In this document: positions 2,943 to 52,151 of the stretch, piece after piece | Numbering within the stretch: the stretch's first letter is position 1 | Layout: the number at the start of each line of letters is the position of its first letter | Assembly (NCBI GenBank): GCA_021463645.1 | Contig: JAJTYI010000004.1 | Location: 174,277 to 238,276, forward strand | Length of the DNA stretch: 64,000 nucleotides | Source of the DNA: a bacterium | GTDB lineage: Bacteria > Patescibacteriota > Dojkabacteria > B142 > OLB20 | Direction of reading: 5' to 3' | Program-made: the position numbers and the translations under genes | Notes under the pieces: generated by a model | The model's database searches: none | Told to the model about the DNA's origin: nothing | What the model saw: only the letters and a program-made list of their open reading frames with translations

Positions 2943-4043
2943 ATGCATTCAAATAATACAGACACAATTGTACAGTTAATTCACGATTTCGTTTCATTCA
3001 AAACCGTTTCTAGTGGAAGTGACATCATAAAAGAAGAACTGATAAATTTTATTGAATTATTTGTGCAGAAAGTTGGGTTACAAACTTATAAGTTCTATAG
3101 AAATGGAAAACCTTCAATGTTGATTTATCATCCACAAAAAGAGAATTGGAATTTCTCATTATTACTTCATGGTCATATAGATGTCGTTCATGCTCATGAA
3201 GAGCAATATCATACCTTCATCAACGAAGGTCGAATACATGGAAGAGGGACATTAGACATGAAAGGATCTGTTGCCGTATTTGTATTATTATTGAAGAATT
3301 TGTATTTATCAAATCAGCTCTCTCCAAATGTAGGAATTATGTTAACTTCTGACGAAGAACAAGGTGGTGTTGATGGCGTGAAATATCTTCTCGACGAAGA
3401 AAGTATAACATCGGATTTTTTCATCACAGGCGAGCCTACCGATTTGTATATTGTTAATAGACACAAAGGCGTATGGAGAAGTAAGTTAACCATTCAAGGC
3501 ACCAGTGCACATAGTTCAACACCTTGGCTAGGTGAGAATTCTTTACACAAAACCTCGAAGTACATTTCAGACTTTGTAGCTAAGAATCCACAACCCTTAT
3601 CTTCAGAGTGGAAAAGCACTTATAGTTTTAATAAAATAGAAAGTGGTGACTCAATAAATAAAATTCCTGATGTTTCATCAGTATGGATTGATATACGCTT
3701 TACCACAAATGAAGAATTGAATAATTTAATAAGCAGTATAAATGAAATTTTTAAGGATGTTGAAATCGAAACCCTTTTTACATCACCTCCGTTAGAAACC
3801 AGCGAAGATAATGAGAAAATTAAAAAACTCAATAATATAATTCAAGTTAAATTACGAAATAAATCAGAGTTGCATAGTAAAGAATATGCAACTGACGCAA
3901 GATACGCGAGTTTGCATAATATTCCTGCAATTGTATTTGGTCCGAGTGGTAATGGAATTCATGAGGTAGATGAATATGTGGAGATTTCGAGTTTAGAAAA
4001 ATACTACGAGATACTAGAAGATTTTTGTATGAATTTTAAATAG
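2943..4043 (+). CDS. M20 family metallopeptidase/deacylase (ArgE/DapE-like)
   Basis: ORF 2916-4043; the ATG at 2943 is preferred because it avoids overlap. Metal-ligand motifs HGHIDVV, GRGTLDMKG, SDEEQGG and GEPT match the M20 family. Confidence 0.8.
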   Translation: MHSNNTDTIVQLIHDFVSFKTVSSGSDIIKEELINFIELFVQKVGLQTYKFYRNGKPSMLIYHPQKENWNFSLLLHGHIDVVHAHEEQYHTFINEGRIHGRGTLDMKGSVAVFVLLLKNLYLSNQLSPNVGIMLTSDEEQGGVDGVKYLLDEESITSDFFITGEPTDLYIVNRHKGVWRSKLTIQGTSAHSSTPWLGENSLHKTSKYISDFVAKNPQPLSSEWKSTYSFNKIESGDSINKIPDVSSVWIDIRFTTNEELNNLISSINEIFKDVEIETLFTSPPLETSEDNEKIKKLNNIIQVKLRNKSELHSKEYATDARYASLHNIPAIVFGPSGNGIHEVDEYVEISSLEKYYEILEDFCMNFK

Positions 4044-4556: not shown

Positions 4557-4710
4557 CTTCTCGTCCCGCATTTGTAACATCATTAGAAATTAATCATATG
4601 AGTCGGGCGGGACTTCCCGTATAATCTCACTTCGTTCGATTTACGGGATAAACTTCTCGTCCCGCCTCTGTAACAATATCAGAGATAAATCATATGAGTC
4701 GGGCGGGACT
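4557..4710. repeat. Tandem duplication (96-nt period) carrying the 3' end of tRNA-Lys
   Basis: 58-nt copies at 4557-4614 and 4653-4710 (CTTCTCGTCCCGC..ATCATATGAGTCGGGCGGGACT). The second copy runs into the real tRNA-Lys. In the first copy the T-arm position holds an extended hairpin (GGCGGGAC..GTCCCGCC on the minus strand). Confidence 0.8.
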
Positions 4711-4766
4711 CGAACCCGCAACCACTGGCTTAAAAGGCCATTGCTCTACCATTGAGCTACCAACCC
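4695..4766 (-). tRNA. tRNA-Lys (anticodon UUU)
   Basis: Hand-folded 72-nt cloverleaf on the minus strand: acceptor GGGTTGG/CCGACTC, D arm GCTC-AATGGTA-GAGC, anticodon loop CTTTTAA, T arm GCGGG-TTCGAGT-CCCGC, discriminator A. No encoded CCA. Confidence 0.9.
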
Positions 4767-4842
4767 ATCTAAAAAGTCTAGGCTTTCACTTCGTTAAAGC
4801 CAGACTTTTTGATGCCCCGTACGAACGAAGTGAGTCACGGGA
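4751..4842. repeat. Copy 1 of a ~92-bp direct repeat: first 16 nt of tRNA-Lys, its 5' leader hairpin, and a CCCCG hairpin
   Basis: ATTGAGCTACCAACCCATCTAAAAAGTCTAGGCTTTCACTTCGTTAAAGCCAGACTTTTTGATGCCCCGT is identical over 70 nt to 4962-5031. Similarity continues with mismatches to 4842 and 5053. Confidence 0.85.
4771..4810 (-). terminator. Hairpin flanked by A-run and T-run (bidirectional terminator-like), 5 nt upstream of the tRNA-Lys 5' end
   Basis: AAAAAGTCTAGGCTTT-loop-AAAGCCAGACTTTTT forms a ~14-bp stem with one bulge and T-runs on both strands. Confidence 0.45.
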
Positions 4843-4961
4843 CCTCTATATTACTAAATTTAAAAGAACAATTTCTCTTCAAATACCCCCCGTACAACTT
4901 CGCTGTGCTTGTTTACGGGGCTAGTTCGGGTAAGCTCATAAATTCGCTAACCCCTCACTAG

Positions 4962-5053
4962 ATTGAGCTACCAACCCATCTAAAAAGTCTAGGCTTTCAC
5001 TTCGTTAAAGCCAGACTTTTTGATGCCCCGTTCGAACAGAGTGAGAAACGGGG
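4962..5053. repeat. Copy 2 of the ~92-bp repeat (orphan tRNA-Lys 5' fragment, positions 1-16, plus leader hairpins)
   Basis: See 4751-4842. Homology to the tRNA stops inside the D loop (after GGGTTGGTAGCTCAAT on the minus strand). Confidence 0.85.
4982..5021 (-). terminator. Second copy of the hairpin plus T-run; plausible terminator of the rnhB-yraN transcript
   Basis: Same sequence as 4771-4810, located ~180 nt downstream of the yraN stop on the minus strand. Confidence 0.45.
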
Positions 5054-5198
5054 CCTTTTCTAATAAAAATGTAAAAGGTCAACTAATTTGAATTCAGATT
5101 TTCTGTTGCCCCGTACGAACGAAGAGAGTTACGGGGCCTCTATATATCAAGAACTCTCGAAATTGCGAAGCAATTATCGAGGACCTAATTTAAAAGAA

Positions 5199-10939: not shown

Positions 10940-10949
10940 CAAATGAGGT

Positions 10950-11137
10950 GTAGACGAACACGAGCTTAAGCGATGTGTGAGTCTAACCGAATTTGTCCCG
11001 TAAACGAGCATCGCGAGTTGTACGGGACCTAACTCTTTGTTCTATATAATTGCAAAGGCGTTGACGAACACGAGCGTAAGCGATGTGTGAGACTAGCCGA
11101 ATTTGTCCCGTAAACGAGCATCGCGAGTTGTACGGGG
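10950..11137. repeat. Two 78-bp direct repeats (10950-11027, 11060-11137), each ending in a CCCGTA..TACGGG hairpin
   Basis: GT(A/T)GACGAACACGAGC(T/G)TAAGCGATGTGTGAG(T/A)CTA(A/G)CCGAATTTGTCCCGTAAACGAGCATCGCGAGTTGTACGGG occurs twice, 110-nt period, with 4 mismatches by eye. Confidence 0.85.
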
Positions 11138-11190
11138 GGATACCAATCTAAGTGTAGTAAACTATTTGTGAGTTATAAAGACAGAAGTAA

Positions 11191-11262
11191 TGGCCAGTAG
11201 CACAATGGTAGTGCAATCCGCTGTTAACGGATAGGTTCTAGGTTCGAGTCCTAGCTGGCCAG
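11191..11262 (+). tRNA. tRNA-Asn (anticodon GUU)
   Basis: Hand-folded 72-nt cloverleaf: acceptor TGGCCAG/CTGGCCA, D arm GCAC-AATGGTA-GTGC, anticodon loop CTGTTAA, T arm CTAGG-TTCGAGT-CCTAG, discriminator G. Confidence 0.9.
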
Positions 11263-11425
11263 TTTTGAAAATTTAGGTTCTCCCACTTCGCTAATGCTTC
11301 GTGGGACTAACCATCAGTAAGGTTCACAAGTTCACTAACTGAGGGTTTAGGAATCCCTGTCTGCCGACAGGCAGGCTGCTCGACTAGCCAAAGGTTCCCC
11401 TGCTCCATTTCATTTCGCAGGACTA
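11251..11425. repeat. Copy 1 of a ~175-bp direct repeat that starts with the last 12 nt of tRNA-Asn
   Basis: CTAGCTGGCCAGTTTTGAAA(A/G)TTTAGGTTCTCCCACTTCGCTAA..., including the palindrome CCCTGTCTGCCGACAGGCAGG, recurs at 11527-11702. Confidence 0.85.
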
Positions 11426-11526
11426 CCCCTCACTTTCGTCAGGGCAAGCCAGCTCTAAGCCTCTACTTCGACAAGCTCGGTATCGGCAAGACCTGGTTGA
11501 GGAGTCCCTGTCTGCCGACAGGCAGG

Positions 11527-24772: not shown

Positions 24773-26596
24773 ATGACAGGAAAAATTGTAAAAATATCAG
24801 GACCTCTAGTCGTTGCAGAGAATATCCCTTCTGCAAGACTTTACGATGTTGTTAAAGTTGGTAATGAAAAACTGACAGGTGAGATTATTGAAATTAGAGA
24901 TAATCGTGCATGGATTCAGGTTTACGAAGAGACTAGTGGTGTTAGTGTCGGAGAAGAAGTGGAGACAACTGGCGAACCTCTAAGTGTTGAGCTTGGACCT
25001 GGTTTATTGAAGAGTATTTATGATGGGATTCAGCGACCACTTGAGGAAATCTCCAAAAAAGGTGGAATCTTCATTACAAGAGGAATAAATGTACCTGCAC
25101 TAAATCGTGATAAAAAATGGGATTTCGTTCCAACAGTTAAGAAGGGGGACAAAGTCCAACAAGGAGATATTTTGGGAGAAGTACAAGAGACAAATCTTAT
25201 TAGCCACAAGATTATGGTTCCCCCAAATGTATCAGGGGAAATTTTAGAAGTTAAATCCGGAAAATATACTGTTGATGAGATTGTTGCAATTATCGACTAC
25301 GATGGAAAAAAGATCGAAGTTAAAATGTATCAAAAATGGCCAATCAGAAAACCAAGAGCGTATAAACAAAAGTTTGTCCCTACGAAACCACTTATCACAG
25401 GACAACGTGTTTTCGATACTTTCTTTCCATTAACCAAAGGGGGAGTTGCCGCAATTCCTGGTCCATTCGGATCTGGTAAGAGCGTATCACAACAGCAAAT
25501 CGCAAAATGGTGCGATGCACAAATTATTGTCTATATAGGTTGTGGTGAAAGAGGAAACGAAATGACTGATGTTCTGAAAGAATTTCCAGAATTGAAAGAT
25601 CCAAACAGTGGAGATCCTTTGATGGAAAGAACTATTTTGATAGCTAATACTTCAAATATGCCAATCGCTGCTAGAGAAGCCTCAATTTATACAGGTATTA
25701 CAATTGCAGAGTATTTCAGAGATATGGGTCTAGATGTTGCACTTATGGCTGATTCTACATCAAGATGGGCAGAAGCATTACGTGAAATATCTGGAAGATT
25801 GGAAGAAATGCCTGGAGAAGAAGGTTACCCTGCATATCTGACATCTAGAATTGCAGAATTTTACGAACGAGCTGGCCGAGTAAGCCCACTCGGAAACAAA
25901 TCCAATGAAGGTAGCGTAACTGTAATTGGAGCTGTTTCTCCACCAGGAGGAGACTTATCAGAACCAGTCTCTCAAGGTACGCTTCAAGTTACTAAGGTTT
26001 TTTGGGCACTAGATTCTTCACTTGCATATGCTCGACATTATCCTGCCATCAATTGGTTAAATAGCTATTCCAGATATGATGATGTGGTTGAGAAGTTCTA
26101 CGACTTAGAAGTTAATCCAGAATTCTCTCAATTACGTCGACAAAGCTTGGAATTACTACAAAAAGAAGCTGAGTTATTGGAGATTATCAGAATTGTTGGA
26201 ATGGACTCACTATCAGTTAAGGATAGATTGATTCTTGATGTCGCAAAATCTTTGCGAGAAGACTATTTACAACAATTCGCATTTGACCCAATCGATACTT
26301 ACACTTCACTAAACAAGCAATATTATATGTTAAAAGCAATTATCACTTTCTATGAAATTGCCGTTCAAATCGCTGAAACTAGTGATGAATTTGATATTGA
26401 GGAATTACTGGATTTGCCTGTTAAAGAAGAAATAGTTGGAATGAAATTGGTTCCTGAGAGTGAGATATCAAAAATTGAATCTCTTTCTAAGAAAATTACA
26501 AAAGAATTGATGAAATTCAAACCTGAAAAAGACGTAACAGAGGCAGATCAACCTGATTACTACCGTGTGATTCGAGACCTCGATGATGAAATCTAA
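24773..26596 (+). CDS. atpA: V/A-type ATPase catalytic subunit A
   Basis: 607 aa. Walker A GPFGSGKSV, GERGNEM, Walker B LMADSTSRWAEALREIS, and the bulge (non-homologous) region typical of A subunits. Confidence 0.96.
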   Translation: MTGKIVKISGPLVVAENIPSARLYDVVKVGNEKLTGEIIEIRDNRAWIQVYEETSGVSVGEEVETTGEPLSVELGPGLLKSIYDGIQRPLEEISKKGGIFITRGINVPALNRDKKWDFVPTVKKGDKVQQGDILGEVQETNLISHKIMVPPNVSGEILEVKSGKYTVDEIVAIIDYDGKKIEVKMYQKWPIRKPRAYKQKFVPTKPLITGQRVFDTFFPLTKGGVAAIPGPFGSGKSVSQQQIAKWCDAQIIVYIGCGERGNEMTDVLKEFPELKDPNSGDPLMERTILIANTSNMPIAAREASIYTGITIAEYFRDMGLDVALMADSTSRWAEALREISGRLEEMPGEEGYPAYLTSRIAEFYERAGRVSPLGNKSNEGSVTVIGAVSPPGGDLSEPVSQGTLQVTKVFWALDSSLAYARHYPAINWLNSYSRYDDVVEKFYDLEVNPEFSQLRRQSLELLQKEAELLEIIRIVGMDSLSVKDRLILDVAKSLREDYLQQFAFDPIDTYTSLNKQYYMLKAIITFYEIAVQIAETSDEFDIEELLDLPVKEEIVGMKLVPESEISKIESLSKKITKELMKFKPEKDVTEADQPDYYRVIRDLDDEI

Positions 26597-26626
26597 ACTG
26601 ATTATATTAAATTAATATTTTGAAAA

Positions 26627-28006
26627 ATGAAAAAGTGGTATAAAACAATAAAAGAGCTCTACGGTCCTTTGTTGATTGTGGAAGGTGTCGAAAATGCGAA
26701 GTTTGAAGATCTTGTCGAAGTTGAGACTCAAGATGGTGAGATAAGAAAAGGTCGTGTGTTAGAAGCTAGAGATGATCGTGCTGTTGTGCAAATGTTTGAC
26801 ACAACATCTGGAATCGATATTAAAAACTCGAAAGCTTCATTCTTAGGAAAAACTTTGAAATTAGGAGTCAGCGAATTGATGTTGGGAAGAGTATTTAATG
26901 GTTTCGGTGATGTAATGGATGGTGGAGAAGAAATCATTCCTGAGAAAGAGCTTGATATCAATGGTTTCCCATTGAATCCATATATGAGGGAATTCCCAGA
27001 GGATTTCATCCAAACTGGAGTATCGACAATCGATGTTATGAACACATTGGTACAAGGGCAAAAACTTCCAATTTTCTCTGTTGCTGGATTACCACACTCA
27101 AAGTTAGCTGCTCAAATTGTTCGTCAATCAAAAGTTATCAAGGAAGGTAAAGTCGATTCCAACTTTGCCATAGTTTTTGGTGCAATTGGTATCACATTTG
27201 AAGAATCACAATTCTTCATCAATGAATTCAAGAAAACTGGTGCATTGTTCAAAACTGTAATGTTTATTAACCTCGCTAACGATCCTGTTATTGAAAGAAT
27301 AACCTTGCCAAGGTTGGCTTTAACAACTGCAGAATACCTAGCTTACGAGAAAAATATGAATGTGCTAGTCGTTTTGACTGATATTACGAACTACTGTAAT
27401 TCACTAAGAGAAGTCTCGGCAGCCAGAAAAGAAGTGCCAGGTAGAAGGAGTTATCCAGGATACATGTATACCGACCTAGCTTCATTATATGAAAGAGCAG
27501 GTAAAGTTGATGGCTCTACAGGTTCGATTACACAGTTGCCAATTTTAACAATGCCTGAAGGAGATAAAACACACCCAATTCCTGATTTGACTGGTTATAT
27601 TACAGAAGGACAAATCGTTCTTGCTCCAGAGTTGGAGAAAAAGGGAATCAATCCTCCAGTTGCAGTATTGGCATCACTCTCTAGATTGATGAATAAGGGT
27701 ATTGGAGAAGGTAAAACTCGAGAAGATCACTCAGGAGTCGCAAATCAATTGTTTGCTGGATATGCAAAAGGACGAGAACTCAGAGAACTAGCACAAATCC
27801 TAGGAGAATCATCTCTTAGTGAAGACGATAGAAAATTTGTTCAATTTGTAGATGCTTTTGAGAAAGAATTCGTAAACCAAGGTTATGAAAATGATAGATC
27901 GATTGAAGAAAGTTTGAATTTAGGATGGAAATTGCTTGCAATGTTGCCCGAAAAAGAACTCAAAAGAGTGAAGAAAGAGCACATCGAAAAATATATGAAT
28001 AAATAA
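26627..28006 (+). CDS. atpB: V/A-type ATPase subunit B
   Basis: 459 aa. [43 protein letters not shown] and SLSRLM motifs. Confidence 0.96.
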
Positions 28007-42366: not shown

Positions 42367-42831
42367 TTAGTTACTAACTCCTGAGAAAAATATTTGTCCA
42401 ATCTTCTGGCCGATCATTAACTTAATTGGGAACTTGCTTGCATTATAAATCTCGCAGGTAATCACTGAGTCGGTCAATGGGTCGACAAGTACAGAAGAGA
42501 TATTAGTGAATAAACCGATTTGGGCAAGTGAAGGTTTTCCGTCAAAGATTGCCATTGTTTCTGAATTACAGTAAATCTTTTCTTCTGTTTTTCCAATTAT
42601 AAACTCACCAGGAGATAAAGTATAAGATTTATTTTTAACTTTAATAGGAGTTAACTCTTTTTCTTTTGGTTTTCCTCCGTTGAAGTATTTTCCTTTCGGT
42701 TTAACCTGGAATAATAAAGATCCCAAATGCATTTCGTATGAAACTGACCCGAGAAATTCTCCTTTAAATGGGGTTATTCCTATTATTTCGTCTTTGATAT
42801 ATTTGATTATTTTTTTATCTGAGAAGAACAT
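42367..42831 (-). CDS. dcd: dCTP deaminase/dUTPase superfamily protein
   Basis: 154 aa. SYEMHLG, LSPGEFIIGKTEE, GKPSLAQIGLF, VDPLTDSVITCEIYN and GQKIGQIFF follow the dCTP deaminase pattern, with some divergent positions. Confidence 0.75.
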   Translation of the reverse strand: MFFSDKKIIKYIKDEIIGITPFKGEFLGSVSYEMHLGSLLFQVKPKGKYFNGGKPKEKELTPIKVKNKSYTLSPGEFIIGKTEEKIYCNSETMAIFDGKPSLAQIGLFTNISSVLVDPLTDSVITCEIYNASKFPIKLMIGQKIGQIFFSGVSN

Positions 42832-42864
42832 AATAATATGTTGTGGATTATGGTAAAAACTAAA

Positions 42865-43002
42865 TCGGAGCGATCCCGCCTATAAATAGGCGGGACGACC
42901 TCTCGCTCCCAAAGCGAGTGTTCTAGCCCCAGCCTCAACCAAAGGCTGATGTGCCTATGGCTCAATAGGCTGGTCCGCCTCTGGCGGAAACTGAACTACG
43001 CT
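42865..43002 (-). pseudogene. Degenerate tRNA-Pro copy with a 61-nt structured D-loop insertion and replaced T arm
   Basis: The minus strand matches the real tRNA-Pro at GCGTAGTTCAGT, GGCTAGAAC(A)CTCGCTTTGGGAGCGAGAGGTCG and TCGCTCCGA. The first 4 acceptor nt are missing, 42929-42989 is an inserted multi-hairpin, and the T arm is replaced by TCCCGCCT-ATTTAT-AGGCGGGA. Confidence 0.8.
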
Positions 43003-43241
43003 TGAATTTTATCGAGCAATTTACGACCTTGACCAGACTTTAGGAACTTCTCTTTATTTGTTCCACATTCTTTGCAATATTTCTGTTCGAAATAAAGCAA
43101 CTCATATGGAATATTATTTTTGGTGTATCGATTTGAGCCTTCATTGTGTTCTTTTAGTCTGTTCGTGATTGGTTTACTAGTATAACCTATGTAACGGTTT
43201 CCGTTTTTCTTACTCTTCAAAACATAAACAGAGTAACTCAT
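42996..43241 (-). CDS. GIY-YIG nuclease superfamily protein (small stand-alone, UPF0213-like)
   Basis: 81 aa. YVLKSKKNGNRYIGYT (GIY..YIG), R..EH..G core. The stop codon TAG lies inside tRNA-derived sequence (GCG-TAG-TTCAGT). Confidence 0.82.
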   Translation of the reverse strand: MSYSVYVLKSKKNGNRYIGYTSKPITNRLKEHNEGSNRYTKNNIPYELLYFEQKYCKECGTNKEKFLKSGQGRKLLDKIQA

Positions 43242-43264
43242 AGACTATCATTGTAAAAATTATA

Positions 43265-43338
43265 TCGGAGCGACTAGACTCGAACTAGCGACCTCTCGCT
43301 CCCAAAGCGAGCGTTCTAGCCAACTGAACTACGCTCCG
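43265..43338 (-). tRNA. tRNA-Pro (anticodon UGG)
   Basis: Hand-folded 74-nt cloverleaf: acceptor CGGAGCG/CGCTCCG, D arm GTTC-AGTTGGCTA-GAAC, anticodon loop TTTGGGA, T arm GCTAG-TTCGAGT-CTAGT, discriminator A. Confidence 0.9.
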
Positions 43339-43399
43339 ATATAATTTTCAAACAACAATCTAATTATCCTATTAATTATCAAGAATAATGAACTGCTTG

Positions 43400-43462
43400 C
43401 CCACGTAGCCTTAAGCGAAGGTGGGAACCTTGTCCCTGACTTGATCAGGGATACGCTCCGAT
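43400..43462. repeat. Orphan tRNA-Pro 5' fragment (leader plus first 9 nt) fused to two GC-rich hairpins
   Basis: Minus strand GAAAATTAAATCGGAGCGTA, compared with GAAAATTATATCGGAGCGTA at the real gene. Followed by hairpins TCCCTGA..TCAGGGA (43433-43451) and CCCAC..GTGGG (43400-43425). Confidence 0.75.
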
Positions 43463-43471
43463 TTAATTTTC

Positions 43472-43509
43472 AAAAAAGTGTGAGATTCGTAATCTACACA
43501 TTATTTTTT
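43472..43509. terminator. Bidirectional terminator-like hairpin between divergent tRNA-Pro and giant-protein operon
   Basis: AAAAAA-GTGT(G)AGATT-CGT-AATCTACAC-ATTATTTTTT: 9-bp stem with one bulge and U-runs on both strands. Confidence 0.45.
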
Positions 43510-43630
43510 CAGAGTAATTCTACCACATCCACATACATAATTCTTAAATATTACAAAAATTCCTAAATATTGTAGTGGTAATACTTTTGTGCTAATTTAT
43601 AGATGAAAATTAAATACATATTTCGCGTTT

Positions 43631-46600
43631 ATGAAGCTCACTCTTAACAGGCTTAGATTTTTGGTATCACTAGGTTGGATATTCCTTATTGGAATTTTTT
43701 CTGTTGTAGGAACTGATCGTGTTGGGAGTGTACTTTCTGCTACCTCTCCATGGACACAAACAGAATGGTCTGGAGGACAAACAGATGACCTGGCGATTGG
43801 AACGGTTACCACATATAAGCAGATGGAGAATTTAGTAACTACATCGGGGAATTTGACACTGGCGTTAAAGTCTCCTTGGATGAATGAGGATTGGGGTTAC
43901 CGAAAAAAGCTTGTAATTGACAACACAACCGCAAATTTAGGCATTGCTTCTGAACAGCATCTGGATTTTCCAGTATTAGTAACTTTAAACACCGATAATT
44001 TCGATTATTCTAAAGCGAATGAAGATGGGAGCGACATAAGGTTTACTGATAGCGATGCATTAACCCTTCTTGATTATCAAATTGAGACTTGGGATATCTC
44101 TGGAGATTCTTTTATTTGGGTTAAGATTCCTCAAATTGATTTAGACTCAGATACTGACAATTTCTATTTATATTATGGAAATGCCTCAGCTATAGATGCG
44201 CAGAATCCTAGCGGAGTTTGGAGCAATTCATTTGAAGGTGTTTGGTTGTTAAATGACCCAAATGATACAACTTTGGTTTTAGATAGTGCTGGTAATCCGA
44301 CTTCAGAGAATGGTACAGCGCTTGCTGGAATAACTAATGCCTCGAAGATTAAATCCGGAATAGGTGGTGCGTTACAATTTGGATCTATAACCACAGATTA
44401 TATAACTCTGGGTATGCCAGCAAATCTTGATTTCACCCCAAATGCACAAGAATTTACAATTGATGCATGGGTCAAGTTTCCAGTCAATGCATCAGGGACT
44501 TTTTTTAGCAAAGGATCGAACACAGCGGCTAATATACAGTACGAGATGTATATTGGAACCAATAGACTTTATAGTCGAGTTGGAGGTGTAGCAAGAGATT
44601 CCACAAAGATAATTGGAGATGGAGAATGGCATCATATAGTTCTTCGTAATTACAATTCATCTGGATTGAAAATTTTTCAATATGTAGATGGATTGCAGGG
44701 AGGTACGCCTATTGCATCTGGGGCAGGAGTAATAACTGATAGAGATGTGATAATAGGAGGAAGAAGAAGTTCTACTAATGCAAACATTACATCAAGTTTA
44801 TCAGCAGGAGTAGAAATGGCAATGGTTAGGGCATCTAGTGTTGCACGTACTCCAGCATGGATTGCTGCCACCTTCAAATCTGAAAGTAACAGTTTTTTTG
44901 AATTTGAGTCAGAAGAAATGAAATACGAGACAAACGGATCTGTTTTATCAAATATCTTAGATGCAGAAGTGTTGCAAGATTGGGGAGTACTAAATTATAC
45001 AAACACTGGATCATCAAGCTTAGAAGTGAAGGTGAGAAGTGGAAATGAACCAGATTTATCTGACTCGGAACAGAGTTGGAGTGAGTGTTCTACAATTTCG
45101 TCTGGATCTACATTGGGAAGTGGAGGATGTGTTACAAATAAAACAAGATATATTCAATACAAAGTTGAATTCGTTGCAACTGATGCACAGACGCCTATTT
45201 TGGAAGATATTTCTTTAGCTTTTACACTAGCTGATATTGTTCGGCCTCCTACAAATGCAACTAACATTGAGATAGCTAATTTTTCTAGTGGAGATTGGAT
45301 TAATTCGTCTCCCACAATAACTTGGGATCCAGGAGTCGACAATGATGGAGGGAGCGGAATTTTAGGTTATTGTGTTTCGGTTGATGAGTCAGAACCAGAT
45401 TCAACTCATTCACTTGATCCAGAAGCAAATGCAGGAATTCTTCAGGGTTTGGATGATGGAGTTGTATCTTCAGCTTGCCCATATATTGTTGAAGGTGAGG
45501 AATTCAACTTGTCATCAATAAATGGATTAAATTTAACTTCTGGAAAGCAATATTATTTCTCGATAAAAGCTATCGATCAAAGTGATAACATTAACAATAC
45601 TGGTGCTTTCCAAGACTTACTATCATTCAAGTTCGACAATACACCACCAACACCACCCAGCTATGTTTCAATGCCTACAAACTTTCTATCATCAAAGAGT
45701 GTTACTGTGAGTTGGCCTTCAACTGGACCTGGTAGCGCAGAAGATGTTCATTCAGGGATTGCAGGTTTACAGTATAAAATCGGAACAGATGGAACATGGT
45801 ATGGGGATTTGCATACTGGCGTAGAAGACATAAACGACATACTAGTTAATGACGGATCATATACAACAAGCCCCGATTATGATTATTCTCAATTAATTGA
45901 AGGTACTAATTTCTTCTACATCAGAGCTGTTGACAATTTAGGAAATGTAACTTCAGATCAAGATGTAACGACTGGTTTAATCAAGATTAACACTTCTGCA
46001 CCATCAAAAGTTCTAAATCTATCAGTAAATAATTCAAATAATACTGAAAATAGTTATTCTTTTGATTGGGATCAGCCCGCCACCTTCACGGGTCAAGCTA
46101 GTGGTATTAGCTATTGTTACACAATTAATACTATCCCAGATGAGAACTCCTGTACTTTTACAGAACCAGGTGTTACAGAACTTCCTTCAGATGCGTATGC
46201 AACACAACCTGGGGTGAATACACTTTATGTTGTAGCAAAAGATGAAGCGGGAAATATTAACTATGCAACTTATAGTGAAACAGGCGCAAGTATAACTTTT
46301 ACATATTCAGGTAGTGCACCTGGTATACCTACAAATACTGACATATCTGATATTTCAATAAAGTCTACGGAGAATTGGAGACTTGTAATTTCTTGGAATA
46401 GCCCAACTAATATAGGTGCTGGTGTCTCCTATTACAATATTTATCGTAAGGTGGGTGAAGCGTCTTGTCTATCCAATTTTAGTTCTTTCAGTAAAGTAGG
46501 CTCAAGTAACAGTACTTCGTATATTGATCCCGATCTTCAACCAGTTCTTTACAGTTACTGTATAAAAGCATGTGATAGTGCCAATAATTGTTCTGCAAGT

Positions 46601-47872
46601 TCAGGAACTGCAAGTCGTGTTCCTACTGGTAAATTCACGGAAGCTGCATTATTATCTAGTGAAGTCGAGGTGTTGTCCGTAACAACTAGAAAAGCACTAA
46701 TTAGCTGGGTGACAGATAGGGTTAGTGATTCGAAAATTGAATATGGACTAGAGTCCGGAAAATATTTTGAAGAGGAAGTGAGTAATAGTGCCCAAGTGAT
46801 AAGCCACAATATTACTCTTAACAATTTGACACCAGGAACAACATATTTTTATAAAGTTAAATGGACTGATGTAGATGGGAATACTGGTGTAAGTGATGAA
46901 AAGTCTTTTGCCACTTTACCTCCTCCAGTAGTGTCAAATGTTTCGGCAAGTGCTATTACTACGAATTCAGCATTAATAAACTTCAGAGTGAGAAATGCAA
47001 CAAGAGTGTCCCTCGTATACGGGACAACAGAAACTTACGGAGGGAGTGAAGAAATTGCTACTTCGACTGAAGAATCTGAATATTCGATTCGATTGGGTAA
47101 TTTACAAGATGGAGTTACCTATAATTATAAATTCTTCCTGCAGGATATTGACGGAAATAATAATGACTCTGTTGTAAATTTCCAATTTGCGACTTTGCCA
47201 CTACCACAAATTAATAATCTAAGATTCGAAGAAGTGAAGAATACATCTCAACCAACAGTTAATGTATTTTGGGAAACCAATGTATTAACACTTGGATTTG
47301 TAGAATATGTAAATCAGGACAACCCAAGTGAGGATAGAACCCAAGCCGAAAGTGAATATTCCAATGAGCACGAATTAACCCTAACCGGATTAACTGCGAA
47401 TACAAATTACACTTTAATAGTTAGTGCCAGAGATTCTCTTGGGAATGTAGTTCAATCGGGGGAGTTTACATTCACTACTGCAAGTGACTCTAGGCCACCT
47501 GCAATATCAAATGTAAAAATTGAAACACGTCTTTCCGATGCCTCAGTAGAATTCGGTGCAGATGTATCGGCACAATTGATACTTACCTGGGACACAGATG
47601 AACTTGCTACAAGTCAAGTTCAGTTCGCACAAGGAACATCTGGAGACTATACTCAAAAAACTGCACTTGATGAAAATTTGACCTTTAATCACTTAGTGGT
47701 TATAAATAACTTAAGCCCGAGTAGCGTTTATAAATTACAAGTTTTGTCAAAAGATGATGTAGGTAATGAGGCAAGGGGTAAGAATATTGTCACGATTACT
47801 GCACAATCAAAAGAAAATCCTTTGGAAGTCATTTTTGGAAGGTTGTCGGAGGTATTTGGTTTCTTAAGATAG
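43631..47872 (+). CDS. Giant secreted/anchored surface protein: DUF2341-like, LamG/ConA-like lectin, multiple FN3/Ig-like repeats
   Basis: 1413 aa. N-terminal signal anchor, SPWTQTEWSGG, DUF2341 pattern (WGYRKK..DFPVLV..DGSDIRF..IWVKIP..YLYYGN), a LamG-like block, and FN3-like repeats (ISWVTDRVSDSKIEYG...). Paralogue of the next gene. Confidence 0.85.
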   Translation: MKLTLNRLRFLVSLGWIFLIGIFSVVGTDRVGSVLSATSPWTQTEWSGGQTDDLAIGTVTTYKQMENLVTTSGNLTLALKSPWMNEDWGYRKKLVIDNTTANLGIASEQHLDFPVLVTLNTDNFDYSKANEDGSDIRFTDSDALTLLDYQIETWDISGDSFIWVKIPQIDLDSDTDNFYLYYGNASAIDAQNPSGVWSNSFEGVWLLNDPNDTTLVLDSAGNPTSENGTALAGITNASKIKSGIGGALQFGSITTDYITLGMPANLDFTPNAQEFTIDAWVKFPVNASGTFFSKGSNTAANIQYEMYIGTNRLYSRVGGVARDSTKIIGDGEWHHIVLRNYNSSGLKIFQYVDGLQGGTPIASGAGVITDRDVIIGGRRSSTNANITSSLSAGVEMAMVRASSVARTPAWIAATFKSESNSFFEFESEEMKYETNGSVLSNILDAEVLQDWGVLNYTNTGSSSLEVKVRSGNEPDLSDSEQSWSECSTISSGSTLGSGGCVTNKTRYIQYKVEFVATDAQTPILEDISLAFTLADIVRPPTNATNIEIANFSSGDWINSSPTITWDPGVDNDGGSGILGYCVSVDESEPDSTHSLDPEANAGILQGLDDGVVSSACPYIVEGEEFNLSSINGLNLTSGKQYYFSIKAIDQSDNINNTGAFQDLLSFKFDNTPPTPPSYVSMPTNFLSSKSVTVSWPSTGPGSAEDVHSGIAGLQYKIGTDGTWYGDLHTGVEDINDILVNDGSYTTSPDYDYSQLIEGTNFFYIRAVDNLGNVTSDQDVTTGLIKINTSAPSKVLNLSVNNSNNTENSYSFDWDQPATFTGQASGISYCYTINTIPDENSCTFTEPGVTELPSDAYATQPGVNTLYVVAKDEAGNINYATYSETGASITFTYSGSAPGIPTNTDISDISIKSTENWRLVISWNSPTNIGAGVSYYNIYRKVGEASCLSNFSSFSKVGSSNSTSYIDPDLQPVLYSYCIKACDSANNCSASSGTASRVPTGKFTEAALLSSEVEVLSVTTRKALISWVTDRVSDSKIEYGLESGKYFEEEVSNSAQVISHNITLNNLTPGTTYFYKVKWTDVDGNTGVSDEKSFATLPPPVVSNVSASAITTNSALINFRVRNATRVSLVYGTTETYGGSEEIATSTEESEYSIRLGNLQDGVTYNYKFFLQDIDGNNNDSVVNFQFATLPLPQINNLRFEEVKNTSQPTVNVFWETNVLTLGFVEYVNQDNPSEDRTQAESEYSNEHELTLTGLTANTNYTLIVSARDSLGNVVQSGEFTFTTASDSRPPAISNVKIETRLSDASVEFGADVSAQLILTWDTDELATSQVQFAQGTSGDYTQKTALDENLTFNHLVVINNLSPSSVYKLQVLSKDDVGNEARGKNIVTITAQSKENPLEVIFGRLSEVFGFLR

Positions 47873-47876
47873 TTCG

Positions 47877-50800
47877 ATGCATGCAAAGAAAATTCTTGCG
47901 ATAAAAACTCTTAGTTTCTCAGTGTTATTCGTAGCTGTAATTTTTCTTGGAACACGAATCAAAGGTAATTTAAATGAGTTCGGTAATGTACTTTCAGCCA
48001 ACTCCCCTTGGATTCAGACAGATTGGAGTGGGGGTGTATATAACCAAATTGTAACGGGTAATGTAAATACTTATATATCCGAAACCGCTATTGATGCTGC
48101 TCTGAATGGTGAAATTAAATTACTTGAAAAAGAGGAGTGGGCTGTTGATTATAATGGATGGCAATATCGTAAGAAAATAAATTTTAATAACACTGATGCA
48201 TTTCTAAATGTCGAAAGTCAAGACTTGATTGATTTTCCGGTTCTTATTGTTCTTCAGCAAGGTGTAAATTTTGATTATACTAAATCTAAAGATAATGGTC
48301 AGGACATACGATTTGCTGATTCAAATGGAAATGTATTAAATTATGAAATAGAAAGATGGGAAGAAAATGGATCCTCCTATATTTGGGTAAAAGTCCCTCA
48401 GATTGATCAAAATTCAAATTCAAGTTATATATATGTCTACTACGGAAATTCTAGTGCATCAGATAGTCAAAACATTACTGGAGTTTGGAAGGATGATTAT
48501 AAAGGAGTATGGCATTTTAAGGAAGTTGTACATAATTCATGCACTGGTAATGTAAATGATACTTGTGATTCTACAATCAACTCAATTAACGGTTCATGGA
48601 CTGGCACTTTCCTTTCTGCAAATGGAAAAATTGGAAAAGCAGGTCAGTTTACTAATAATGCTACTAATTTCCTGGATTTCGGAGATAATGCAGTCTTTGA
48701 TTTTGGGAATAGCGACTTTACTATAGAGACTTGGTCGAATAGAAATATTGTCAATAGTGATTGGAATTCATCTGTGATTACAAAATGGAATACTGGAGCA
48801 TCACCATCAACAAATGAATGGTCAATTTCTTGGGGTTCTGGAGGTTCAAGATCTACTGTCCCTGGTTTTACGATGGTATCTGGATCTACTAATTATAATG
48901 CTAATTCAACCGAAAGTTTACTTACACAAACATGGAATCATATCGTAGCAGTCAGAGAAAACACGAATATACTTTTATATGTTAACGGAGTATTGCATGC
49001 AACAACTCCTGTTGGGTCTGTTTCTGTAAATAATGTACCCGGAAGAACACTTAAAGTTGCTAAAATTGATGCAGGGAGTTATGGATTTGATGGTTTGATA
49101 GATGAAATAAAGATTTCTAGAACTGCAAAGTCCCGATCGTGGATAGCGGCAACTTATAAGTCGGAAAATAATCAATTTGCCTCCTTTTCTCAAGAAGATC
49201 TCAAATATAATGATAGTGGTTATCTAGTTTCAAACATTCTTGATTCAGGTGTGTCAATGGACTGGGGATTACTAAACTACACAAGTTCAGGAACAGGTAC
49301 GGTAACAGTTAAGGTACGAACAGACAACTCGTCTGATATGAGTGGAGCAACAGGCTGGGGAACGTGTGGTGCAGTTACAAGCGGAACTGACACTTCTGCA
49401 AACAACTGTGTAGACGATGGAGATAGATATATCCAATATCAAGTAACTCTTCAACCAAGTGGAGCATCAACTCCAGTATTTGAAGATATTAGCATAGCTT
49501 TTGTTCCATCAGATCAACTAGCACCAGAAGTAAACGCAACAGATGTTGAAATCTCAGGACTTGCAAACAGCGGAGATTGGTATGCAACAGAACCAACAAT
49601 CACATGGACAGCAGGAGCAGATGACTTAGGGGGTAATGGGATTTTAGGATATTGTATAGCAATAGATGAAGCAGAACCAAATGCCAGTAACGGACTAAAT
49701 CCAGCGATGACCTCAGGAATACTAACAGGTAAGAATGACGGAGTAGCACAAGAGTATTGCCCCTACATAGTAGTGGGAGAAGAATTAGAGGTAAGTGCAG
49801 TAATAGGACTGGATTTGATTGCAGGTAAACAATACTACATATCAATAAAAGCAGTAGATATCGCAGGAAATATCTACACAGGAACAGATGAAACATGGAA
49901 AGATCTACTATCATTCAAGTATGACAACGAAGAACCAACAGCACCATTCTACATATCATTACCCGCAAACTTTCTATCATCAAAAGACGTAGTAGTAACA
50001 TGGCCGGTAGGAGTAGGAGGAGCAGATGACTTACACTCAGGACTAGCAGGACTACAGTACAGGATAGGAGACACAGGAACATGGTATGGAGACCTACATA
50101 CAGGAACAGAAGATATCAATGACCTACTAATAAACGACGGTTCGTATGTAACAGACGAGACATACGATTACCCAGAACTAGTAGAAGGAAACAACCTAAT
50201 CTACTTCAGGGCAGTAGATAATCTAGGGAATGTAACAGCACCAGAGAACTATGTAAAAGGAATATTGAAGCTAAATACAGTGGCACCATCTCCAGTAAGA
50301 AATCTCTCCGTAAACCCAATAAACGGAACAGAAAACAATTACACATTTACATGGGATGTCCCAGGAACATATACAGGATCAAGTTCAGGGATAAGATACT
50401 GTTACACAGTAAACGCAATACCGTCAGTATCAAATTGCATATACACAGATCCGGGAGTAACAACCATAGGACCAGATGCATATGCAACACAACCAGGAGA
50501 GAATACAATGTACGTAGTAGCAAAAGATGAAGCAGGAAACATCAACTATGCAACATACTCGGAACCAGGATCAAGTGTAACGTATACATACTCAGGAACA
50601 GCACCAGGAATGGCACAGAACTTGGATGTAGCAGATATCTCGGTAAAAGCAACACTGAATTGGAGACTGGTACTATCGTGGGATCAACCAACAAACATAG
50701 GAGCAGGGATATCCTACTACAATATTTATCGTAGTGAGACAGCAACTTCATGTGTATCTTCACAGAGTGCATTCACAAAAGTAGGGTCAAGTACAAGTAC

Positions 50801-52151
50801 ATCATACATAGATCCAAACCTACAACAAAAAACATACAATTATTGTATAAAGGCATGTGATAGTGCAAACAACTGTTCAGCGAGTTCAGGGACGGTAGGG
50901 AGATTACCAACAGGGAAGTTCACGGAACCAGCAGAGTTGCTATCTCCACCGGAGGTAGTGAGTTTTACAACAAGGAAGGCAGTGATTAATTGGATAACAG
51001 ACAGAGTATCAGACTCTAGTATTCAGTATGGTCTTGAAAGTGGTGTCTACTTCGAAGCAGAAGTAGCAAACAGTAATCAACTAGCTGTACATACAATTCC
51101 TCTCAATAATCTCGAACCAGGAACTACATACTATTACAGAGCAAAATGGACTGATGTAGATGGAAACACAGGTGTAAGTGAGGAAAAAACTTTCTCTACT
51201 CTTCCGGCCCCAACAATCTCAAACACAATAACAACTAACGTCACTACAAATTCGGCGGTTGTCACATTTTTAGTAAGAAATTCAGTAGAAGCAACTATTT
51301 TATACGGATTATCCGATAATTATGGTGGCTCACAAACGATACCAACCTCTACAATAGAGTCGACTTATTCATTGCAACTTACAAATCTTCAAGAAGGTAC
51401 ATTGTACAACTACAAACTGAATCTATTGGATGTCGATGGGAATAACTATACTTATTTTGAGAATCATCAATTTACAACATTACCATATCCGCGAGTACAA
51501 GATATCCAAGTACAAGAAGTAAAAAACAGCGCTCAACCAACAGTCGATGTAAATTGGATATCAAATGTACCAATAAGTACCCAAGTTAATTACTATCCTC
51601 TAGATGACACTAATCAGAAAAGGGATAAGCTCGATGTAGAATTAAAAACAGAACACAAAATATCGATTTCAGAATTACAACCAAACAGAAGATACGGTAT
51701 GATAATAACTGGAAGAGATGCAATAGGAAATCAAGCTGTATCTGATGAATATCAATTCACAACAGCAGCAGACTCAAGACCACCAGAAATAAGAAACATA
51801 AAGGTAGAGACAAGAGTAAGTAATACAAATACAGGAGAACAAGCACAAACACAGTTGATAGTGACATGGGATACGGATGAAGAAGCAACAAGTCAGATAG
51901 AATATGGAGAAGGTTCAGGAGGGACATATACACAGAGGAGTTTGGTAGATGACAATCTAACGTTCAATCATTTAGTAATAGTAAACAATCTACGACCAAG
52001 TAGTGTGTATCACTTCAGAGTGGTATCGGCAGATAGTGCAGGGAATGAATCAAGTGGAAAGAATGTAGTAACGATAACAGCACAAGTAAGTGAAAACCCA
52101 TTGGACATAATTATCTCTAGATTAACTGAAGTGTTTGGTTTTATCCGCTAG
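47877..52151 (+). CDS. Giant surface protein, paralogue of 43631-47872 (DUF2341-like, LamG-like, FN3 repeats)
   Basis: 1424 aa with the same architecture and the same C-terminal tail (ENPLDIIISRLTEVFGFIR). Starts 4 nt after the previous stop. Confidence 0.85.
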   Translation: MHAKKILAIKTLSFSVLFVAVIFLGTRIKGNLNEFGNVLSANSPWIQTDWSGGVYNQIVTGNVNTYISETAIDAALNGEIKLLEKEEWAVDYNGWQYRKKINFNNTDAFLNVESQDLIDFPVLIVLQQGVNFDYTKSKDNGQDIRFADSNGNVLNYEIERWEENGSSYIWVKVPQIDQNSNSSYIYVYYGNSSASDSQNITGVWKDDYKGVWHFKEVVHNSCTGNVNDTCDSTINSINGSWTGTFLSANGKIGKAGQFTNNATNFLDFGDNAVFDFGNSDFTIETWSNRNIVNSDWNSSVITKWNTGASPSTNEWSISWGSGGSRSTVPGFTMVSGSTNYNANSTESLLTQTWNHIVAVRENTNILLYVNGVLHATTPVGSVSVNNVPGRTLKVAKIDAGSYGFDGLIDEIKISRTAKSRSWIAATYKSENNQFASFSQEDLKYNDSGYLVSNILDSGVSMDWGLLNYTSSGTGTVTVKVRTDNSSDMSGATGWGTCGAVTSGTDTSANNCVDDGDRYIQYQVTLQPSGASTPVFEDISIAFVPSDQLAPEVNATDVEISGLANSGDWYATEPTITWTAGADDLGGNGILGYCIAIDEAEPNASNGLNPAMTSGILTGKNDGVAQEYCPYIVVGEELEVSAVIGLDLIAGKQYYISIKAVDIAGNIYTGTDETWKDLLSFKYDNEEPTAPFYISLPANFLSSKDVVVTWPVGVGGADDLHSGLAGLQYRIGDTGTWYGDLHTGTEDINDLLINDGSYVTDETYDYPELVEGNNLIYFRAVDNLGNVTAPENYVKGILKLNTVAPSPVRNLSVNPINGTENNYTFTWDVPGTYTGSSSGIRYCYTVNAIPSVSNCIYTDPGVTTIGPDAYATQPGENTMYVVAKDEAGNINYATYSEPGSSVTYTYSGTAPGMAQNLDVADISVKATLNWRLVLSWDQPTNIGAGISYYNIYRSETATSCVSSQSAFTKVGSSTSTSYIDPNLQQKTYNYCIKACDSANNCSASSGTVGRLPTGKFTEPAELLSPPEVVSFTTRKAVINWITDRVSDSSIQYGLESGVYFEAEVANSNQLAVHTIPLNNLEPGTTYYYRAKWTDVDGNTGVSEEKTFSTLPAPTISNTITTNVTTNSAVVTFLVRNSVEATILYGLSDNYGGSQTIPTSTIESTYSLQLTNLQEGTLYNYKLNLLDVDGNNYTYFENHQFTTLPYPRVQDIQVQEVKNSAQPTVDVNWISNVPISTQVNYYPLDDTNQKRDKLDVELKTEHKISISELQPNRRYGMIITGRDAIGNQAVSDEYQFTTAADSRPPEIRNIKVETRVSNTNTGEQAQTQLIVTWDTDEEATSQIEYGEGSGGTYTQRSLVDDNLTFNHLVIVNNLRPSSVYHFRVVSADSAGNESSGKNVVTITAQVSENPLDIIISRLTEVFGFIR

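Follow-up and report, generated by a model that had tools for sequence, protein, structure and literature searches.

The stretch analysed here (the window) comprises 64,000 nucleotides of a Dojkabacteria genome (GTDB OLB20; assembly GCA_021463645.1, contig JAJTYI010000004.1, positions 174,277 to 238,276). The genome is low in GC (35.6%), and by GatB its nearest named relatives are Ca. Dojkabacteria/WS6, at about 60% identity. On its minus strand, an 81-aa open reading frame (ORF) encoding a GIY-YIG domain lies between an intact tRNA-Pro(UGG) gene and a second, decayed copy of that gene, and an orphan 5' fragment of tRNA-Pro lies further upstream. A preliminary description of the sequence had listed these four elements, and all of them were found on this strand, with similarities beyond chance. 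Table 1 gives the elements of the locus in order from upstream to downstream, as read along the minus strand from 43477 to 42847.

Table 1. Elements of the tRNA-Pro locus and their positions in the window (DH, double hairpin; hpA and hpB, the two upstream hairpins)
Element	Positions	Strand	Basis or remark
Orphan fragment: leader plus tRNA-Pro positions 1-9 (...GAAAATTAAATCGGAGCGTA)	43452..43477	-	26-nt direct repeat
Two GC hairpins inserted after orphan position 9	43400..43451	-	read from sequence
hpA	43433..43451	-	conserved in related locus L091
hpB	43400..43425	-	
AT-rich spacer and leader of intact tRNA	43340..43399	-	promoter-like site by consensus scan only
Intact tRNA-Pro(UGG), working copy	43264..43339	-	ARAGORN; Rfam RF00005, 66 bits
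81-aa GIY-YIG ORF	42996..43241	-	begins 22 nt after intact tRNA
Decayed copy, tRNA-Pro positions 4-17, overlapping ORF 3' end	42989..43002	-	14/14 identity to 43322-43335
60-nt DH insertion in D loop, at CAGTT^GGCT	42929..42988	-	DH covariance model
Remnant: D-loop 3' side, D-stem 3' strand, anticodon arm (UGG), variable region	42896..42928	-	
Hairpin in place of T arm (TCCCGCCTAT / ATAGGCGGGA), 10-nt arms	42874..42895	-	inverted repeat
3' acceptor strand and discriminator (TCGCTCCGA) plus 18-nt trailer of decayed copy	42847..42873	-	

By repeat scan, the orphan fragment matches the genuine leader and tRNA 5' end (43355-43330) with 92% identity across 26 nt, and its 20-mer GAAAATTAWATCGGAGCGTA is found at exactly two places in the window (0 expected). 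The anticodon-arm remnant of the decayed copy is identical to the intact gene at 32 of 33 nt (2 matches in the window, 0 expected), and the 27 nt at its 3' end repeat 43247-43273 with 85% identity. Neither ARAGORN nor Rfam called the decayed copy, which does not class as a tRNA or tRNA-like structure, and an Rfam search of the locus (E<=10) returned only tRNA matches, with nothing for the remnant or the DH. The stop codon of the ORF, a TAG at 42998-42996, corresponds to U8-A9-G10 of the decayed copy, in agreement with the preliminary description, which had placed it in tRNA-derived sequence. Two of its details required correction. The first acceptor nucleotides of the second copy are indeed altered, but three rather than four are affected and they are substituted, not deleted; the D-loop insertion is present, but it is 60 nt rather than 61 nt long and is a conserved DH, not random decay. 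Similarity by chance, or an assembly chimera, has a practically negligible probability as an explanation of the locus. Six contigs from two independent sequencing projects share the 650-nt region with 100% identity, so that it is not an assembly artefact, the related loci L087 and L007 have a homologous arrangement, and the reading is refuted by the repeat counts (0 expected) together with the identity of the contigs. The tandem-copy similarity that the preliminary description relied on is therefore far beyond chance.

The ORF product matches the Pfam GIY-YIG profile PF01541 (E=3.3e-10, 40.6 bits against a cut-off of 22.6) and belongs to this superfamily by profile, by the GIY and YIG tyrosines, and by the arginine and catalytic glutamate. 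In 30 homologues, residues Y6, Y17, G19, R28, H32, E52 and E64 and a C-terminal FLKSG-G motif are invariant; the C-terminal motif of the family is REKFLKSGQGRK(F/L)LD. The closest solved relatives by sequence are 1YWL (E=1.9e-9) and 1ZG2 (4.1e-9), both UPF0213, and then SLX1 (4.6e-4). An AF2 model of the protein is one compact domain with a pLDDT of 93.5, for which Foldseek ranked 1ZG2 first, then Slx1 (TM 0.67, rmsd 2.2-2.3 A), with I-TevI lower (about 0.5). Sequence, fold and the minimal stand-alone domain all place the protein in the Slx1/UPF0213 (YhbQ-like) branch, and it fits the 'minimal stand-alone Slx1-like' group of Dunin-Horkawicz et al. (PMC1564403). No NCBIfam model matched the protein. 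At 81 aa, it has no DNA-binding module beside the catalytic domain of the kind that marks I-TevI and Seg proteins. Comparison with L087 (ORF 90% identical) and L007 (80%) gave dN/dS values of 0.14 and 0.05, respectively, at saturated dS. Judged from these values, the ORF is under purifying selection, and together with the invariant catalytic residues they indicate that the predicted gene is functional.

Homologues are short single-domain proteins, almost all of 80-125 aa, and most come from Patescibacteria and Omnitrophota. The family profile is matched at E<=1e-10 by about 4,100 clusters at 50% identity, nearly all of them single-domain, and only 2 homologues were found among 2.9 million viral contigs. 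Several metagenome-assembled genomes with typical units (L011-L014, L025, L030, L033 and others) are labelled Gammaproteobacteria, Bdellovibrionales or Planctomycetia, among others; these labels may be unreliable or may reflect a genuinely wide host range.

To place the locus in the context of this family, we fetched 80 genomic loci by protein alignment alone and then scanned them for tRNAs. Association was counted over the 81 ORFs for which 90 nt or more of sequence lay downstream. An intact co-oriented tRNA began -40 to +35 nt from the stop codon in 54 of these, and in 8 others the partner was a tRNA-Asn overlooked by ARAGORN owing to a group I intron (Rfam RF00028), so that 62 of the 81 ORFs abut or overlap a co-oriented tRNA, where chance would give about 0.01 per ORF. 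A tRNA fragment or DH came first, with the tRNA further on, in 14 cases. No tRNA was called for the last 5, which include the window and L087 with their decayed remnants. At least 12 isotypes serve as partners, among them Asn (the commonest), Val, Ala, Pro, Ile, Met, Thr, Gln, Arg, Phe and Lys, and more distant homologues (44-50% identity) are arranged in the same way at tRNA-Ser and tRNA-Trp. At several loci, two family ORFs lie within 1 kb, and one tRNA cluster can contain several ORFs. In a neighbour-joining tree, which is weakly resolved at 80 aa, many ORFs group by partner isotype, with some apparent switches.

The ORF ends in a TAG followed by D-stem sequence, that is, in the tRNA's own U8-A9-G10, in 42 of 88 cases. 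A few ORFs run on to the next conserved TAG at tRNA positions 21-23, and most of the remainder end 2-25 nt upstream of tRNA position +1. A stop codon in tRNA-derived sequence is thus a family trait, and it is found beside intact tRNAs. The preliminary description had proposed that the GIY-YIG cassette inserted into, or recombined at, the 5' acceptor stem of tRNA-Pro. Insertion into this stem does not hold, since overlap of the ORF 3' end with the tRNA 5' end is the norm beside intact tRNAs, and the recurring breakpoints and insertions of the family lie in the D and T loops and at a few further fixed positions. Because the overlap is normal, the decayed copy is most simply the original partner tRNA of the ORF. 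The more general suggestion of the preliminary description, a GIY-YIG gene within a mobile-like, tRNA-associated element, is supported, and there are many other tRNA-linked copies among the retrieved loci.

In the canonical unit, an orphan tRNA 5' fragment with a DH is followed by a spacer of about 5-25 nt, the ORF of about 80 aa and an intact tRNA of the same identity as the orphan; the first 10 nt of this tRNA often provide the ORF's last codons and stop. An exact repeat of at least 12 nt connects the upstream 350 nt with the junction of ORF end and tRNA for 56 of 87 ORFs (0/87 in a reverse-complement control). In L015, L030 and L043, this repeat reaches at least 18 nt into the 3' end of the ORF, which suggests that the putative remains of an older ORF copy precede the orphan there. 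We also considered the tRNA leader TTTGAAAATTATAT as a remnant of an ORF 3' end (F-E-N-Y-I-G-A-stop against L-D-E-N-I-P-G-stop); the likeness is suggestive and was set aside as too weak.

The DH consists of two adjacent 6-bp GC stems with 3-nt loops (consensus TTTCCGCC-AAA-GGCGGA-CCAGCC-TCT-GGCTGG-GGCT). A strict DH lies at most 60 nt upstream of the start codon, inside the orphan, in 58 of 91 ORFs (median about 16 nt). Matches to a DH covariance model cluster at the units, with nearly none in the flanking 3 kb on either side. Across 135 distinct copies, 99.9% of stem cells pair, and at four stem positions the copies alternate between two Watson-Crick pairs, which makes 227 double changes. Because the alignment was fitted to the model, the percentage is biased upwards, but the double changes stand out clearly. 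Both hairpins have an invariant GCC-N3-GGC, and G-U occurs in only 4 of 1620 cells. Rfam has no family that covers the DH, as searched at the window locus and 14 related loci, where only tRNA and group I intron matches were returned. The DH is nearly its own reverse complement, with a purine-rich first loop and a pyrimidine-rich second loop, and some copies are almost perfect 30-nt palindromes (for example L049 and L081, in an alignment of loci L007-L088). This near-palindromy and the near-absence of G-U hint at a DNA-level role, for instance as a cruciform or a dimer-binding site. Alternatively, the DH may be an RNA element of the 5' untranslated region (UTR).

The flanks of 73 of 98 strict DHs map onto a tRNA at their own locus. 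If both flanks can be mapped, they adjoin each other in the tRNA, and these DHs are therefore clean insertions. Hot spots, in raw tRNA positions, are 8/9, 12-14, 17-19 (D loop), 28-30 (Asn anticodon stem) and 54-58 (T loop), and the commonest target is CAGTT^GGCT. Two simpler rules were tried and rejected. A fixed orphan end 7-8 nt after the DH, as one concerted cut would leave, gave way to a range of 5-11 nt once more loci were included, with a distance from DH to ATG of 4-56 nt. DH sites are also not confined to unpaired loops of the cloverleaf, as the common Asn site lies within the anticodon stem. That site has the 9-mer CAGTTGGCT in common with D loops, and it seems, as far as such motifs indicate, that sequence and not loop position decides where a DH is found.

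In the window, the covariance model gave a single match in 64 kb, at 42931-42992 (E about 1e-8), and the DH sequence pattern likewise occurs once (0 expected), which identifies the D-loop insertion as a DH element. Hairpin 1 is CCGCCagaGGCGG, and hairpin 2 is CCAGCC...GGCTGG with a nested insertion of about 30 nt. The flanks are CAGTT and GGCTAGAAC, as at other D-loop sites. Decayed copies 3' of an intact tRNA, with DHs in their D and T loops, were often seen (for example in L026, L055, L014 and L068), and the second tRNA-Pro copy of the window looks exactly like these. Hairpin insertions similar to the one that replaces its T arm are present in the T loops of decayed tRNA copies of L014, L026 and L068 and at the window's tRNA-Lys. 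The upstream hairpins hpA and hpB are not matched by the DH covariance model. They occupy the position that DHs have in Ala- and Ile-type loci (8/9), with AGTTCA (tRNA positions 9-14) continuing 3' of them at 43394-43389, and from position they may be a degenerate counterpart of the DH.

Other loci show how the units turn over. In L088/L089 (ORF 66% identical), a canonical tRNA-Pro(UGG) unit ends in the intact tRNA, and its hairpins and ORF are bracketed by a 25-nt repeat made up of TAATTTTT and tRNA positions 1-17. L087 and L007 have the window's arrangement of intact tRNA, ORF and remnant. In both, the anticodon arm is missing from the remnant, of which only the DH and 18-20 nt of the 3' end are left; the DH is homologous to that of the window and has a compensatory change in hairpin 1 of L007 (CGGCC/GGCCG). 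L007 has at least 2 extra upstream units without an ORF, each made of tRNA positions 1-16, a DH and a spacer. The intact tRNA-Pro is 100% identical in the window, L087, L007 and L091. L091 is orthologous to the window locus (DCD 78% and DUF2341 protein 76% identical) and keeps the tRNA-Pro orphan, one hairpin and the 3' remnant, and it has no ORF. The empty-site comparison proposed in the preliminary description is thus answered by L091, and the gene is present in one and absent from the other as for Seg genes, in a single comparison in which loss and non-invasion are indistinguishable. In L092, tRNA-Pro(CGG) is flanked by hairpin-bearing decayed copies, again with no ORF. L027 and L052 form a clean filled/empty pair that differs by a 113-nt insertion in the D loop, composed of an 18-nt target duplication, a DH and a 65-nt spacer. 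Identical tandem units were found in L033 and L065.

No canonical terminator follows the ORF in the window, and scans for terminators and promoters gave nothing above background. A promoter-like TGGGCA-17-GATAAT lies at 43403-43375 (consensus scan only); such sites are no more numerous in the region than expected from shuffling. This weak consensus scan placed no promoter-like site between tRNA-Pro and the ORF, which makes co-transcription of the two probable. Neighbouring genes encode a dCTP deaminase-like protein, a HAD protein and a DUF2341 protein, and no recombinase lies between the repeats. On the opposite strand, directly adjoining the locus, is an ORF of 1413 aa for a predicted surface protein of the DUF2341/fibronectin-III type, one of two adjacent giant ORFs (1413 and 1424 aa, 43631-52151, plus strand). 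These are partly alike: a fragment of the L091 homologue of the first ORF matches the first at 76% and the second at 40%. Elsewhere in the window, genes for V/A-type ATP synthase subunits A and B are found at 24773-28006 on the plus strand (Pfam ATP-synt_VA_C).

All three tRNA loci of the window are surrounded by hairpin-rich repeats. At tRNA-Lys(UUU) (4694-4767, minus strand), a 95-nt direct repeat (4751-4845 and 4962-5056, 94%) consists of the leader and tRNA-Lys positions 1-17. The orphan upstream breaks off in the D loop, after which come about 115 nt with CCCCGTAAAC...GTACGGGG hairpins. Downstream, a 58-nt repeat (4557-4614 and 4653-4710, 88%) is made of remnants of the T arm and the 3' side of the acceptor, and its T loop contains an inserted hairpin. 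This locus (4557-5056) has no ORF; its architecture is like that of the GIY-YIG units, with another hairpin family. The T-loop insertion family GACGAGAAGTTTnTCCCGTAA...TACGGGAAGTC occurs in the window at 4620-4690, after tRNA-Lys, and in L091 at 2340-2400, after tRNA-Pro, so that this hairpin element has entered the T loops of different tRNA remnants. At tRNA-Asn(GUU) (11191-11262, plus strand), the hairpin-rich region spans 10946-11450. Two 81-nt tandem repeats (10946-11026 and 11056-11136, 94%) that share the hairpin GTCCCGTAAACGAGC...GTACGGG lie upstream, and four GC hairpins (about 11270-11450) lie downstream, one of them like hpB of the tRNA-Pro locus and one like a hairpin of L092.

On balance, we lean towards reading the tRNA-Pro locus as a partly decayed unit of a minimal tRNA-associated GIY-YIG family that is a selfish, homing-endonuclease-like element. 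Since the family has many partner isotypes, relics, tandem units, breakpoints at fixed positions, one intact copy per array and a central nuclease gene, the pattern would fit a selfish nuclease gene living in tRNA leaders. The architecture and its statistics, DH conservation, the differences in presence and absence, purifying selection and the fold relationship are observed, and the mechanism that follows is our inference. The nuclease is predicted to break DNA in or beside tRNA genes, and recombinational repair between the short tRNA repeats would then copy, duplicate or delete units. The outcomes of repair would be homing to the same tRNA gene in other genomes, occasional jumps between isotypes, and tandem arrays. 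Selection would preserve exactly one intact copy per array, and redundant copies would gather DH insertions and deletions. Placed between the tRNA promoter and the tRNA, the ORF would obtain transcription, and RNase P would free the tRNA. Where the stop codon lies within the tRNA, the RNase P cut would leave a stop-less mRNA, which may limit the dosage of the nuclease.

Applied to the window, the simplest history would begin with a canonical ORF-tRNA-Pro unit. A duplication would then have placed a second tRNA-Pro and about 18 nt of its trailer upstream of the ORF, and the ORF-proximal copy would have decayed by insertion of the DH at CAGTT^GGCT, the nested insertion, replacement of the T arm and substitutions in the acceptor. 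The intact upstream tRNA-Pro accordingly remains what the preliminary description had supposed it to be, a replacement duplicate for the ruined copy. The orphan and its hairpins may represent an older unit that lost its ORF. Neither tblastn (E<=50) nor a profile search of six-frame fragments gave another GIY-YIG remnant in the window, so a former ORF in this upstream relic unit is not demonstrable.

Several observations weigh against a selfish element. Cleavage activity and target are predictions for all family members, and the 81-aa protein has no DNA-binding domain and no evident means of sequence recognition. If the target lay inside the tRNA, the intact partner tRNA would stay cleavable. 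The position of the ORF downstream of the intact tRNA in the lineage of the window needs an extra duplication or recombination beyond simple D-loop homing. The scarcity of homologues among viral contigs leaves no obvious vector. Strong purifying selection and clades that largely track one isotype (in the weakly resolved tree) would also fit long vertical retention for a host function. In addition, tRNA linkage is not universal in the wider UPF0213-like family: L099 (Logan DRR438483, from the sample series of the window contigs) encodes a homologue, P0090, that is 46% identical and has FLKSGSGHNF, with no tRNA or DH nearby.

The DH may have a larger part than the selfish reading gives it. In a two-component element, which we regard as unlikely, the DH would be the mobile or recognised DNA and the Slx1-like nuclease the structure-specific enzyme. 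The DH would extrude as a cruciform or as single-stranded DNA hairpins, breaks would occur at DHs and not at intact tRNAs, and a DH, either alone or together with the ORF, would be inserted at a small number of tRNA motifs, CAGTT^GGCT among them. The tight linkage of DH and ORF speaks for this, as do the clean insertions at few tRNA motifs and the coming and going of DH units without an ORF (L027 against L052; L007 and L076). The rarity of G-U and the doubly invariant GCC-N3-GGC would fit a constraint on both strands, and the nearest characterised folds are Slx1 nucleases, cutters of branched DNA. However, action of the nuclease on the DH is a prediction, and the hairpins lie directly before the start codon, where they could equally act in the mRNA 5' UTR. 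The window genome has other hairpin families at other tRNA loci, so that a link of one DH type with one nuclease is unproven, and a 30-nt element with neither terminal repeats nor its own target-site duplication fits no known transposition chemistry. It is possible, though we are doubtful, that ORF and DH together constitute a new minimal class of bacterial mobile element whose nuclease recognises the folded DH and not a sequence. After a break at the DH, host recombination would use the tRNA homology on either side to carry copies of the DH and the ORF into tRNA genes, where the ORF would borrow the tRNA promoter, the RNase P site and the U8-A9-G10 stop. The litter of hairpins and partial duplications at Patescibacteria tRNAs, including tRNA-Lys and tRNA-Asn of the window, would be the footprint of such a system.

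A host or domesticated function is also improbable in our view. The protein could serve in adjustment or repair of tRNA copy number, in defence or counter-defence (as for SegB), or in an action on tRNA or other RNA, and the position in a tRNA leader would simply couple ORF expression to tRNA transcription. The low dN/dS, again at saturated dS, the size of the single-domain family and the ORF clades that largely track tRNA isotype would all be expected of a retained gene. Fusion of a prokaryotic Slx1-like domain to a TrmH methyltransferase (tRNA Gm18, D loop) has been reported and was read there as a hint at RNA metabolism (PMC1564403), and SegB helps its phage through amplification of tRNA genes (PMC13096335). 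Nonetheless, the close relative L091 has no ORF at the orthologous site despite an identical tRNA, partner tRNAs vary among lineages, and tandem units, ORF-less relics and truncated ORF ends form a pattern of selfish turnover. The preliminary description had offered one more alternative, in which the decayed tRNA-like 3' region is kept because it helps to process or stabilise the GIY-YIG mRNA. The 161-nt region does fold far better than shuffled sequences (z=-6.4), no canonical terminator follows the ORF, and the DH and T-arm hairpin could shield the mRNA 3' end. Yet the low folding energy is due to the inserted GC hairpins and not to a tRNA fold, which ARAGORN and Rfam do not recognise in this region, and RNase P and RNase Z would need a 5' acceptor strand and a T arm, which are destroyed in the window copy. 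Different parts of the remnant are gone in L087 and L007, among them the entire anticodon arm, no compensatory changes that preserve a tRNA-like fold were seen across relatives, and a normal tRNA follows the ORF in most family members. We consider this alternative very improbable.

Among known systems, SegB is the best experimental precedent for a selfish nuclease gene at tRNAs. SegB is a GIY-YIG homing endonuclease of a phage tRNA cluster that cuts inside tRNA genes (PMC13096335; PMC2330249) and drives recombination-dependent tandem amplification of segB together with tRNA-Tyr (PMC13096335). The T4-like Seg genes and the present family have in common a GIY-YIG gene among or next to tRNA genes of many isotypes, and SegB promotes its own inheritance and nuclease-plus-tRNA tandem amplification by homologous recombination, much as the selfish reading would have it here. 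SegB differs in being a phage protein of the I-TevI/Seg lineage with a C-terminal region beyond the catalytic domain, whereas the family has the Slx1/UPF0213-type catalytic domain of 80 aa alone and resides in cellular genomes (Patescibacteria, Omnitrophota). Abutment or overlap with tRNA position +1, the tRNA-donated stop, the DH and the orphan fragments have no described counterpart in SegB. The Slx1/UPF0213 proteins (1YWL, 1ZG2, 6SEH; PMC1564403) are closest in sequence and fold and have the same minimal domain, which lacks the Asn motif at the C-terminus. Slx1 cuts branched DNA in a structure-specific manner; for the UPF0213 proteins, which have no assigned function, linkage to tRNA genes is not reported in the literature searched. 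The family differs from both in its C-terminal REKFLKSGQGRK(F/L)LD motif and has no Slx4-like partner.

Integrating islands and prophages resemble the family in their tRNA landing site, the direct tRNA repeat and the restored intact tRNA. They use tyrosine or serine recombinases, usually involve the tRNA 3' part and are kilobases long, whereas the unit here is about 0.35 kb, has no recombinase and duplicates the 5' part. We rejected an integrase-type element at the window locus because no tyrosine or serine recombinase is present and the repeats are of the tRNA 5' part, not the 3' part. REP/BIME sequences with RAYT, IS200/IS605 ends and Correia-type MITEs are likewise short GC-rich hairpins that spread and may need a small nuclease acting on folded DNA, but the family has no HUH/Y1 transposase, and its DH is found almost only in tRNA-derived sequence by a GIY-YIG gene.

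Group I introns of Patescibacteria tRNAs occur in the same hosts and favour the same gene, tRNA-Asn (PMC13011429). They are reported at position 35/36, most tRNA introns have no endonuclease gene, and GIY-YIG is not mentioned there (PMC13011429). Among our loci, a group I intron lies in the tRNA-Asn after the ORF in L024, L028, L040, L042, L069 and L085 (RF00028, 64-95 bits; sites at about 3186-3600 in locus coordinates, 748-1102 in L040), and probably also in L060 and L094. Orphan fragments of the Asn type tend to end near position 35/36. Cooperation of a group I intron and a free-standing GIY-YIG gene at tRNA-Asn is a possibility. We discarded an intron-encoded endonuclease as the identity of the ORF: no RF00028 match was found at 42500-43800 even at E<=10, family ORFs are present at intron-less tRNAs too, and in intron-bearing loci the ORF is upstream of the tRNA and outside the intron.

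A literature search (GIY-YIG with tRNA, Patescibacteria, UPF0213) returned no description of the ORF-tRNA overlap, the DH or the orphan fragments, although it covered few subscription journals and an earlier description is possible. The family is apparently a large, undescribed set of GIY-YIG genes at tRNA 5' ends in Patescibacteria and some other phyla. A nuclease gene that parasitises tRNA genes would be of a known kind; there is a real chance that the combination of a hairpin with a minimal nuclease is a new kind of mobile element.

If the selfish reading is true, these units of about 0.35 kb would be among the smallest self-propagating gene units known, and the phage SegB-tRNA association would gain its first counterpart in cells, built on the Slx1-type GIY-YIG branch. 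It would explain the tRNA fragments and GC hairpins around Patescibacteria tRNA loci, the short 'GIY-YIG family' ORFs of odd length that are called next to tRNAs, and a protein gene whose last codons and stop are shared with a tRNA. The 81-aa protein and the 30-nt DNA or RNA structure form a testable pair, which could show how a nuclease that consists of the catalytic domain only finds its target.

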